Positions 1,649 through 4,183 of a stretch of DNA of 11,186 nt are shown here, piece after piece. The stretch is from positions 1 to 11,186 of IMG/VR virus record IMGVR_UViG_2671180603_000013. One strand, 5' to 3'. Source of the stretch: a virus. Taxonomy: Duplodnaviria; Heunggongvirae; Uroviricota; Caudoviricetes. Within the stretch, counting starts at the first letter, position 1, and every line of letters starts with the position of its first letter. Below the pieces are notes generated by a model that did no database searches, was not told where the DNA came from, and saw only the letters and a list, made by a program, of their open reading frames with translations. The position numbers and the translations under genes were made by a program.

Positions 1649-2029
1649 ATGACCGAGCGCATAGAATTTGTTTTACCTTACCCGCCGACGGTGAACACTT
1701 ACTGGCGTCGTCGTGGCAGCACATATTTTGTATCAAAAGCCGGGGAGCGTTATCGCCGGGCAGTGGCGCTTATTGTTCGCCAGCAGCGGCTGAAATTAAG
1801 CCTGTCCGGAAGGTTGGCAATAAAAATTATTGCAGAACCACCGGATAAGCGCCGCCGTGACCTGGACAATATTCTGAAAGCGCCGCTGGATGCGCTGACG
1901 CATGCGGGGTTGCTAATGGACGATGAGCAGTTTGATGAAATCAATATCGTTCGTGCTCAGCCAGTATCTGGTGGACGTCTGGGGGTGAAGATTTATCCCA
2001 TAATGCTTGAAGGGCAGGTCAAAAAATGA
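1649..2029 (+). CDS. rusA: Holliday-junction resolvase RusA (copy 1)
   Basis: 126 aa with the RusA hallmarks LPYPPTVNTYW, PDKRRRDLDNILKAPLDALT, MDDEQ and GGRL. Start ATG 1649 abuts the upstream TAA (1646-1648). Confidence 0.9.
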   Translation: MTERIEFVLPYPPTVNTYWRRRGSTYFVSKAGERYRRAVALIVRQQRLKLSLSGRLAIKIIAEPPDKRRRDLDNILKAPLDALTHAGLLMDDEQFDEINIVRAQPVSGGRLGVKIYPIMLEGQVKK

Positions 2030-2232
2030 AACTGGAAGATTTACCGAAATACTACTCCCCAAAATCCCCCGGCCTGACTGATGCATCGGCCTCAACGTCG
2101 AAAGATGCGCTGAGTATCACTGATGTGATGGCCGCGCAGGGCATGACACAGAATCGGGCTGAGATGGGGGTTTCTGCGTTCCTTGGGAAAATGGGCATTA
2201 GTATGAATGACAGAGAGCGGGCAACAGAATTA
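1665..2232 (+). repeat. diverged direct repeat, copy 1 of the rusA-Q 5' module (partner about 2968..3533)
   Basis: The two segments align colinearly by eye with scattered substitutions (e.g. RGSTYF/RDNTYF, MLEGQ/MHEEQ, SPG/SPC). Confidence 0.8.
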
Positions 2233-2253
2233 TACATCACTCAACCACGCTGA
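2026..2253 (+). pseudogene. truncated 5' fragment of a Q-like antiterminator gene (Q')
   Basis: The first ~66 codons closely match the N-terminus of the full-length ORF at 3329..4183 (MKLEDLPKYYSPKSP...GISMNDR.RATEL); similarity stops at 2232 and a stop follows 7 codons later. ATGA overlap with the rusA stop. Confidence 0.7.
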
Positions 2254-2501
2254 ATATCAAAGGAGAGAGTTACCGGTTAAAAGAGAAACGTAAAGCTGGA
2301 GTGCTGACCAAAAACACAACGCCAATCAGTGATGATGAAATGGTGGAAAGCGGACAGCATCAGTAACGAAAGTATTTAGCGGGCATGAAAATGGCAAATA
2401 ACGGTCAAACATCGTGGCGTTGACACAATTGCGATCTTTTCCTGTGTGGTACGCCGTCTGCGTTTCTCCGGCCCTAAGACATCAATCATCTGTACTCCAA
2501 T

Positions 2502-2548
2502 GACTAGTCTAAAAACTAGTATTAAGACTATCACTTATTTAAGTGATA
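2502..2548. promoter_or_regulatory. cluster of dyad-symmetric elements (candidate operator)
   Basis: GACTAGTC palindrome (2502-2509), a second ACTAGT 6 bp downstream (2515-2520), and a 20 bp dyad TATCACTTA-tt-TAAGTGATA (2529-2548, 9 bp arms). A TTGACA hexamer lies at 2421-2426. Located in the non-coding gap upstream of the 80-85 aa ORF. Confidence 0.3.
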
Positions 2549-2715
2549 CTGGTTGTCTGGAGATTCAGGGGGCCAGTCTACGGACATTTTCTGCCTGTGG
2601 ACCAGGAAAGTGCACGGGTGCTTTCCACTCCCATGAAGCCCGGCAATCCGCGCAGATACAGTAATAAACGAACTGACAGCAGTAAGATGGAGCGTTTCTT
2701 TTGAACAACCAGACA

Positions 2716-2958
2716 ATGACTTTTACCCCTGAACAATTGCGTAAACACGCGCAGGAAATGCTGCGTCATGCTGAACAACTCGAAAAAACGGGCATAACAA
2801 AAGACGCTATCCGTAAAGATATGGTACCCGCGCTTCGGGAACTGATGCAGGCGAAGCATCGCGCACAGAAAGCAGTAGATGAGCTGGTGGACTGTGTGGC
2901 AGAGCTGGAAACCAGAGTCGGAAAGTTTGAAAAACTGGTGCAGGAGGTGCTGCGCTGA
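2716..2958 (+). CDS. hypothetical small coiled-coil protein (80 aa from ATG 2716; 85 aa if TTG 2701 is used)
   Basis: ORF rich in E/K/R/L/Q. Its TGA stop overlaps the ATG of rusA copy 2 (TGATG at 2956-2960). Confidence 0.55.
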   Translation: MTFTPEQLRKHAQEMLRHAEQLEKTGITKDAIRKDMVPALRELMQAKHRAQKAVDELVDCVAELETRVGKFEKLVQEVLR

Positions 2959-3332
2959 TGCGCCATGAGTTTATTTTACCTTATCCGCCGACGGTGAATA
3001 CTTACTGGCGACGTCGTGACAACACATATTTTGTATCAAAAGCCGGTGAGCGTTATCGCCGGGATGTGGCGCTTATTGTCCGTCAGCAGCGACTGAAATT
3101 AAGCCTGTCCGGAAGACTGGCGATAAAGATTATTGCAGAGCCACCGGATAAGCGCCGTCGTGACCTGGACAATATCCTGAAAGCACCACTGGATGCACTG
3201 ACACATGCGGGAGTGTTAATGGACGATGAGCAGTTTGATGAAATCAATATCGTTCGTGCTCAGCCAGTATCTGGTGGACGTCTGGGGGTGAAGATTTACC
3301 CCATAATGCATGAAGAGCAGGTCAAAAAATGA
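2958..3332 (+). CDS. rusA: Holliday-junction resolvase RusA (copy 2, diverged paralog)
   Basis: 124 aa carrying the same RusA motifs as copy 1; ATGA overlap with the following Q start. Confidence 0.9.
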   Translation: MRHEFILPYPPTVNTYWRRRDNTYFVSKAGERYRRDVALIVRQQRLKLSLSGRLAIKIIAEPPDKRRRDLDNILKAPLDALTHAGVLMDDEQFDEINIVRAQPVSGGRLGVKIYPIMHEEQVKK

Positions 3333-4183
3333 AACTGGAAGATTTACCGAAATACTACTCCCCAAAATCCCCTTGCCTGACCGATGCATCGGCCTCAACG
3401 TCAAAAGATGCGCTGAGTATCACTGATGTGATGGCCGCGCAGGGCATGACACAGAATCGGGCTGAGATGGGGTTTTCTGCGTTCCTGGGGAAAATGGGCA
3501 TCAGTATGAATGACAGGGCGCGGGCAACAGAATTACTGGCAGATTATGCACTCAGTCGGTGCGATCGTGTGGCGGCGTTGAGAAAACTTCCGGCAGAAAT
3601 AAAACCGGTAGTGATGCGCATTATGGCTTCGTACGCTTTTGAGGATTATGCCCGCAGCGCAGCGAGTAAAAAGCAGTGCCCTTGTTGCTATGGGGAAAAA
3701 TTTATTGAAAGCGTAGTTTTTACAAACAAGGTCCAGTATCCGGATGGTAAGCCGCCGGTATGGGCAAAGTGTACGAAAGGTGTGTATCCGTCTTACTGGG
3801 AAGAATGGAAAAAAGTCAGAGAGGTGGTAAAAGTTGCCTGTCCGGAGTGTGGCGGAAAGGGTGAGGTTTCCACCGCCTGTAAGGATTGCCGTGGGCGTGG
3901 TGTCGCCATTCATCGTGAAGAGTCGGTAAAACGTGGTATGCCTGTTATCAGAGACTGCCAGCGTTGTGGTGGTCGTGGCTATGAAAGACTACCATCAACG
4001 GAGGCATTTAATGCTATATGCGAGGTGACAAACCAGATAACACGCGCGTCATGGGAAAAAACAGTTAAGAAATTTTATGATGCGCTGGTGACCCGGTTTG
4101 ATATTGAAGAAGCATGGGCTGAGCGGCAGTTAAAAAAGGTAACTAGGTTGATTTTTCCGGAATCTGTGGTAAATTCGTCATAA
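3329..4183 (+). CDS. putative late-gene antiterminator Q (lambdoid Q-like, zinc-ribbon type)
   Basis: 284 aa. Canonical position immediately after rusA and before a promoter/terminator pair and the late region. Several CxxC pairs (CPCC, CPECGGKG, CKDCRGRG, CQRCGGRG). Family assignment is by synteny and recall, not by search. Confidence 0.65.
   Translation: MKLEDLPKYYSPKSPCLTDASASTSKDALSITDVMAAQGMTQNRAEMGFSAFLGKMGISMNDRARATELLADYALSRCDRVAALRKLPAEIKPVVMRIMASYAFEDYARSAASKKQCPCCYGEKFIESVVFTNKVQYPDGKPPVWAKCTKGVYPSYWEEWKKVREVVKVACPECGGKGEVSTACKDCRGRGVAIHREESVKRGMPVIRDCQRCGGRGYERLPSTEAFNAICEVTNQITRASWEKTVKKFYDALVTRFDIEEAWAERQLKKVTRLIFPESVVNSS
4148..4175 (+). promoter_or_regulatory. pR'-like late promoter candidate overlapping the 3' end of Q
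   Basis: TTGATT (4148-4153), 16 bp spacer, TAAATT (4170-4175). Predicted start near the Q stop codon, about 65 nt before the terminator at 4223-4248. The TAAATT -10 matches my recollection of lambda pR'. Confidence 0.4.

Follow-up and report, generated by a model that had tools for sequence, protein, structure and literature searches.

How two copies of one lambdoid module came to lie side by side is the question raised by the virus record IMGVR_UViG_2671180603_000013. The window that we analyzed – the whole 11,186-bp stretch of this record, to which all positions below refer – appears to carry two rusA-Q modules in tandem, each with a rusA gene followed by a gene for a Q antiterminator, and the first with its Q cut off. 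A preliminary description, made from the sequence alone, took this arrangement for a recombination junction between two different lambdoid nin/Q regions. We find instead that the window is very likely a scaffold of three short-read contigs (1-2231, 2233-6086 and 6088-11186) from two Shigella sonnei prophage remnants, here called A and B, and not a continuous piece of chromosome. Three observations carry this reading: unsequenced bases (Ns) stand at both points where the window switches between remnants, each piece is identical or nearly identical to its own remnant, and the two remnants occupy separate loci in complete genomes.

An exact look-up of the protein encoded by the esterase gene retrieved the source of the window, record CXDK01000149.1 of the draft assembly GCA_001252175.1. 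In a base-by-base comparison the window proved to be the whole of this 11,186-bp record except at two bases: positions 2232 and 6087, which read A in the window, are N in CXDK01000149.1. These gap placeholders coincide exactly with both switches of source, from A to B (scaffold gap 1, at 2232) and from B back to A (scaffold gap 2, at 6087, where contig 2 ends at 6086 and contig 3 starts at 6088). Because an N stands at both joins, the adjacency of the three contigs was inferred by a scaffolder and never sequenced.

Each contig can be assigned to one remnant. Contig 1 between 35 and 2231, with a DUF968 gene, rusA and the start of Q, is 100% identical to A in the complete genome CP064376.1 (locus L031), and over 321-2231 it is also 100% identical to S. 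sonnei Ss046 and to numerous further genomes of the species. Contig 2 (2233-6086) is 99.84% identical to remnant B of S. sonnei 53G (L007, 8905-12758). Remnant A is then resumed on the plus strand at 6088-11186, where matches to Pfam and an identity of 99.94% to L031 12730-17832 (an alignment that covers 6085-11186) identify a DNA methyltransferase gene, three tRNAs, an SASA/DUF1737 esterase, a holin and DUF1327. The degenerate lambdoid prophage A supplies contig 1 from its left part and contig 3 from its right; it lies next to ompW and has the order DUF968-rusA-Q-65-aa open reading frame (ORF)-methyltransferase-tRNAs-esterase-holin. Contig 2 is the usual stand-alone contig of remnant B, near an ipaH gene, in which an IS21 inside an IS2 inside a helicase gene is followed by an 85-aa ORF, rusA, Q, tRNAs, IraM and the start of a DUF1737 gene. 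The scaffold lacks 1087 bp of A, comprising Q codons 70-273 and the 65-aa ORF, and holds 3854 bp of B instead.

Complete genomes place the two remnants far apart. A lies at 1.85 Mb and B at 2.52 Mb in CP104423.1, and CBDDMI010000001.1 is similar; in these two genomes, the ones in which both loci were located, the remnants have the same orientation and are separated by ~670 kb. The modules thus sit at separate loci, and the tandem arrangement does not hold. Nor does the truncated first Q, since contig 1 ends at 2231 and A has an intact 273-aa Q in all 10 complete-genome loci shown. In one look-up, 9 of 10 loci place the exact protein of the first rusA copy beside a 273-aa Q, and the remaining locus has a split Q (58 + 214 aa); in a second, all 10 loci have the 273-aa Q there. 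The exact 284-aa Q of B, for its part, occurs in S. sonnei genomes behind IS21 and the interrupted IS2 and helicase gene. Nine of the 10 loci shown have both istA and istB called upstream of B, and L011 has istA only; the IS21 tail of contig 2 is contiguous with a complete IS21 in S. sonnei B loci. Among 5426 complete Escherichia coli genomes, none covers at least 80% of 1500-3100 in one place, and a search of a phage collection returned only single-module relatives.

Draft genomes point the same way. The 284-aa Q of B lies on contigs of 2-5 kb in 1139 of 1407 index blocks, which indicates that assemblies normally leave B on a contig of its own, about as long as contig 2. In three sister drafts that share the rare esterase allele of this isolate (L036-L038), pieces of A and B follow one another in other, mutually incompatible orders. 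Most of the switches in these drafts are again N gaps (1710 and 6114 in L036; 1096-1099, 5238-5248 and 5974-6164 in L037), and the remaining ones fall inside shared repeats. One contig of L037 aligns to A without gaps over a stretch that opens 81 bp ahead of the first join point and extends past the second, with 2 mismatches.

The joins themselves are abrupt. At 2231/2233 the Q of A meets an internal point of istB, and at 6086/6088 the beginning of the DUF1737 gene of B runs into the methyltransferase leader of A; there is no homology at either join, and microhomology amounts to 2 bp at most. The 75-aa Q-stub ORF takes its final six codons and its stop from IS21 sequence beyond the gap, and the ORF at 6031-6192, a DUF1737 start fused to the methyltransferase leader, is likewise read across the gap at 6087. 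Exact look-ups of the two ORFs read through the joins, the 75-aa Q stub and one of 48 aa at 6087, returned no match; the gene table of CXDK01000149.1 nevertheless calls a 75-aa product at 2026-2253, at odds with the empty look-up of the 75-aa protein. A 34-mer across the first join had no exact match in GTDB species representatives, JGI metagenomes or IMG/VR, which is weak evidence as the pattern holds the substituted A.

Much of what had been said of the two modules stands once they are taken as separate. Repeat analysis, pairwise alignment and BLAST agree that 1657-2232 and 2960-3535 are colinear, as proposed, at a constant offset of 1303 bp, and that they are clearly diverged, with 92.7% nucleotide identity. 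Identity is 93% between the two RusA proteins and 96% over the first 69 Q codons. Homology does stop at 2232, where it had been seen to end abruptly, but that base is an N and marks a contig end; the supposed recombination junction between the modules is this scaffold gap. The upstream contexts differ as described, with DUF968 before the first copy and another ORF before the second; that ORF, earlier called a coiled coil, is an 85-aa hypothetical ORF with sub-threshold Pfam matches only. Judged by their sequences, the two modules are diverged paralogues from different lambdoid prophages. As far as can be established without reads, copies from separate prophages have been united by assembly, an outcome that the preliminary description had itself raised as one that would overturn its reading. 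We therefore hold with high confidence that a tandem rusA-Q arrangement with a cut-off Q is not a real feature of this genome.

In contig 1, the DUF968 gene of A (590-1648, plus strand; Pfam DUF968, E=2.6e-62) is followed by the first rusA copy (1649-2029, plus strand, 126 aa; Pfam RusA, E=1.5e-16) and by the 5' part of the Q of A (2026-2231, plus strand), a piece of ~68 codons that stops at the contig end and is not a truncated gene. Up to 2231 it is 100% identical to L031 and L018, both of which run on from there into a 273-aa Q. In contig 2, the 85-aa ORF of B (2701-2958, plus strand; annotated as a hypothetical protein in L002) precedes the second rusA copy (2958-3332, plus strand, 124 aa; E=1.3e-16) and the 284-aa Q of B (3329-4183, plus strand; Pfam Antiterm PF03589, E=7e-55). 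Both rusA copies are intact, as the preliminary description had it: each spans the full length of the Pfam model (PF05866, model positions 1-123 of 124), scoring 61.6 and 61.8 bits against a cut-off of 22.8. The catalytic acidic residues of RusA in E. coli are D70, D72 and D91; read by eye, both copies carry the motifs RRRDLDN and MDDEQ, candidate sites for the equivalent residues. Against PF03589 the 284-aa Q reaches 183.6 bits, whereas the 5' piece of the Q of A scores 47.7 bits and covers model positions 2-50 only, as is expected of a fragment at a contig end.

The Q of B has a peculiarity of its own at 4140-4183. It is 284 aa long against 273 aa in an E. coli relative (L002) and in A; its stop codon is lost through an 8-bp deletion, which lengthens the protein by 11 residues, and the identical 284-aa protein is found in many S. 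sonnei genomes.

A repeat within Q offers a plausible origin for the false adjacency. When the 1087 bp of A that are absent from the scaffold are compared with the Q of B in contig 2, they are 95% identical and contain exact runs of 328 bp and 88 bp. The longer run, at 3821-4148 on the plus strand, was found by exact-match analysis against the missing 1087 bp; its counterpart in the 3' part of the Q of A (L031 11929-12256) matches it perfectly, with flanks that are 92-95% identical. A contig of the sister draft L036 begins exactly at the start of this run. A run of 328 bp exceeds the typical Illumina read length of the period. This segment is probably a collapsed repeat that linked read pairs from A and B, and the identical stretch probably misled the scaffolder. 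Such perfect identity also points to an earlier gene conversion between the Q genes of these resident prophages, or to a mosaic block that both share.

We propose that the shared 3' part of Q would have been assembled only once, inside contig 2, and that read pairs from the flanks of A would then have pointed into that contig. A scaffolder would have chained the left part of A, B and the right part of A, with gap estimates of zero or below that would have been written as single Ns, and the small A-specific connecting contigs would have been dropped. We infer the exact mechanism and the software. The scenario fits a published high-throughput pipeline of Velvet, SSPACE and GapFiller that was applied to 299 S. 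sonnei isolates (PMC5320598). According to its authors these tools are greedy and can join sequences falsely, every join appears as an N gap, and contigs below 300-500 bp are excluded. Neighboring CXB-series whole-genome shotgun accessions belong to the S. sonnei drafts of Holt et al. 2012 (PMC5447701). The accession of the record itself had no match in the literature and is absent from the supplements of PMC5320598, so the assembly software is deduced rather than read from a source.

Two points weigh against an origin by scaffolding. The collections hold no complete genome of the exact lineage of this isolate (that is, with the same esterase allele). The contig ends at 2231 and 6088 also lie off the exact repeat borders, so that the scaffolding scenario is approximate in its details. 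A rival explanation is a real insertion, in which a 3.85-kb copy of B would have illegitimately replaced 1087 bp of A in this isolate; the window would then hold a genuine rusA-Q'/rusA-Q tandem, and the Q of B would stand over the late genes of A. Template switching during replication could produce the A-B-A order and would leave microhomology of at most 2 bp at both joins, as seen here, the single Ns then being one-base assembly uncertainties. Alternatively, a tandem duplication of ~670 kb with a novel joint at 6086/6088 could have been followed by deletion of nearly all of its first copy (joint at 2231/2233), and A and B do share one chromosomal orientation. The scaffolder, moreover, did find read pairs linking the contigs. 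Yet the 328-bp exact repeat accounts for spurious links of this kind, and both joins fall exactly on unsequenced positions, the only two in the record. An insertion would also require two independent illegitimate events, no complete genome has the arrangement, and the sister drafts show other orders, L037 being continuous across both points. We consider a real insertion highly improbable.

A genuine adjacency created by insertion sequences (ISs) would place the change in A itself. Under this explanation IS21 or an IS-driven rearrangement interrupted the Q of A, gap 1 hides the rest of IS21, and the order of the contigs is right even though the size of the gap is wrong. Contig 2 does begin inside IS21, which exists in multiple copies and cannot be crossed by short reads, and S. 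sonnei is rich in IS-mediated rearrangements, such as the 5' piece of IS21 beside the lysis genes of A in CP064376.1. But contig 1 ends in an uninterrupted Q with no bases of an IS21 left end, the IS21 tail is joined to the interrupted IS2 and helicase gene exactly as at the B locus of all complete genomes, and neither the second join at 6087 nor the missing 1087 bp of A is explained; we give this account hardly any credence. Recent local tandem duplication of the module followed by decay of the first Q has the direct repeat and its constant 1303-bp spacing in its favor, and next to no probability in our judgment. It is contradicted by nucleotide divergence of ~7%, by entirely different upstream genes and, already decisively, by the segment identities, since each copy matches a different resident prophage at 99.8-100%. 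On this point the preliminary description, which favored two different lambdoid sources over a recent duplication, is borne out.

The left part of contig 2 records a history of insertions at remnant B. It starts with the last 193 bp of IS21, the 3' end of istB and the right end of the element (2233-2425, plus strand; 99.5% to L001 3001-3193, where istB is annotated). There follows the 160-bp left end of an IS2 interrupted by IS21, with the first 22 codons of its first ORF (2421-2580, minus strand; 98% to L001 3908-4066, annotated as an IS2 family transposase), and the 3' end of a replicative helicase gene truncated by IS2 (2580-2704, plus strand; 99.7% to L002, which carries the annotation replicative DNA helicase). 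Across 2233-2704, and in L007 at 5915-9252, the insertions are nested, IS2 lying in the replicative helicase gene and IS21 in the first ORF of IS2 at about codon 22. This nested structure is genuine: a single contig reads through it, and complete S. sonnei genomes have it as well. Truncation of Q by the IS21 and IS2 fragments (2233-2580) was also considered and rejected, as the join of Q to IS21 lies inside IS21 and not at an IS end, and the join base is an N. Beyond the insertions, contig 2 holds between 2580 and 6086 the helicase 3' end, the 85-aa ORF, rusA, the 284-aa Q, two tRNAs, DUF3927, IraM and the first 41 nt of the DUF1737 gene.

Other insertion sequences lie at or just beyond the edges of the window. 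Positions 1-34 are the terminal sequence of an IS1, of which bases 1-30 match IS1 ends exactly in L018, L028, L034 and L006; similarity to A in CP064376.1 starts at base 35, and the IS1 end is missing at the same site in this closest complete genome. Short-read contigs typically begin at insertion sequences, and the IS1 end marks an isolate- or lineage-specific IS1 insertion together with the contig boundary. About 250 bp past the right end of the window, at L031 18083-21059, an IS600-like element adjoins an inverted IS21 whose final ~310 bp are missing, a hint that the B-side IS21 took part in an IS-mediated inversion in the lineage of CP064376.1.

A second apparent duplication affects the tRNAs and the late leader, in which 4246-4551 pairs with 7244-7546, 5181-5399 with 7556-7774 and 6036-6086 with 8499-8549. 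It arises because the region downstream of the Q of B (contig 2) was chained before that of A (contig 3) across the second N. The tRNAs with a CAT anticodon at 4286-4361 and 7284-7359 are called Met by ARAGORN, and their homologues in related E. coli prophages are annotated as tRNA-Ile (L002, L003); they are probably lysidine-modified tRNAs of the Ile2 type, typical of lambdoid late regions. The small RNA family STnc100 (RF02076) occurs three times on the plus strand, at 5235-5424, 7610-7799 and 8077-8286, with 124-161 bits against a cut-off of 47. All three end in a GC-rich hairpin with a T run behind it; B has one of them and A the other two, which lie between its tRNAs and its esterase. From the tRNA cluster to the SASA/DUF1737 esterase, A has ~960 bp (7545-8508) without a convincing ORF, with only STnc100 copies and terminator-like hairpins; it is in this position that Stx-converting phages carry their stx genes.

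The practical consequence concerns how drafts are read. Where Ns are silently turned into A, the scaffold gaps of draft assemblies look like recombination breakpoints and truncated genes, and comparing stretches with their source records for N positions would remove such false findings. The biology is already visible in complete genomes, in which S. sonnei has two separate IS-riddled lambdoid remnants with paralogous rusA-Q modules.

The window resembles known false joins in drafts made with SSPACE and GapFiller (PMC5320598), in which contigs that share paralogous repeats are chained, Ns serve as placeholders, sister drafts have inconsistent orders and small connecting contigs are absent. It differs from them in that the software of this record is undocumented and that its Ns were replaced by A, which hides the gaps. 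The reference genomes with which its parts compare include S. sonnei 53G (HE616528.1) and Ss046 (CP000038.1), as identified in PMC5447701. Set against the S. sonnei prophage A by ompW (Ss046, CP000038.1; CP064376.1), segments 35-2231 and 6088-11186 are 99.9-100% identical and have the same gene order, but the scaffold is without the 1087 bp that hold Q codons 70-273 and the 65-aa ORF; like CP064376.1, it also has no IS between methyltransferase and esterase, where most S. sonnei genomes carry one. Set against remnant B near ipaH (53G, HE616528.1; 75/02, CP019689.1), segment 2233-6086 has the 99.84% identity given above and the same nested IS21-IS2-helicase structure, 85-aa ORF, rusA, 284-aa Q, tRNAs and IraM, whereas it retains only the last 193 bp of IS21, its contig ending inside a repeat, and carries five single-nucleotide differences from all complete genomes examined. 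Compared finally with the mosaic nin/Q regions of lambdoid phages, in which RusA is paired with a Q of the phage 82/21 type (PF03589), nothing about the modules is unusual once they are assigned to separate loci: both are ordinary, with an intact RusA, an overlapping Q start, and tRNAs and a late-gene leader downstream.

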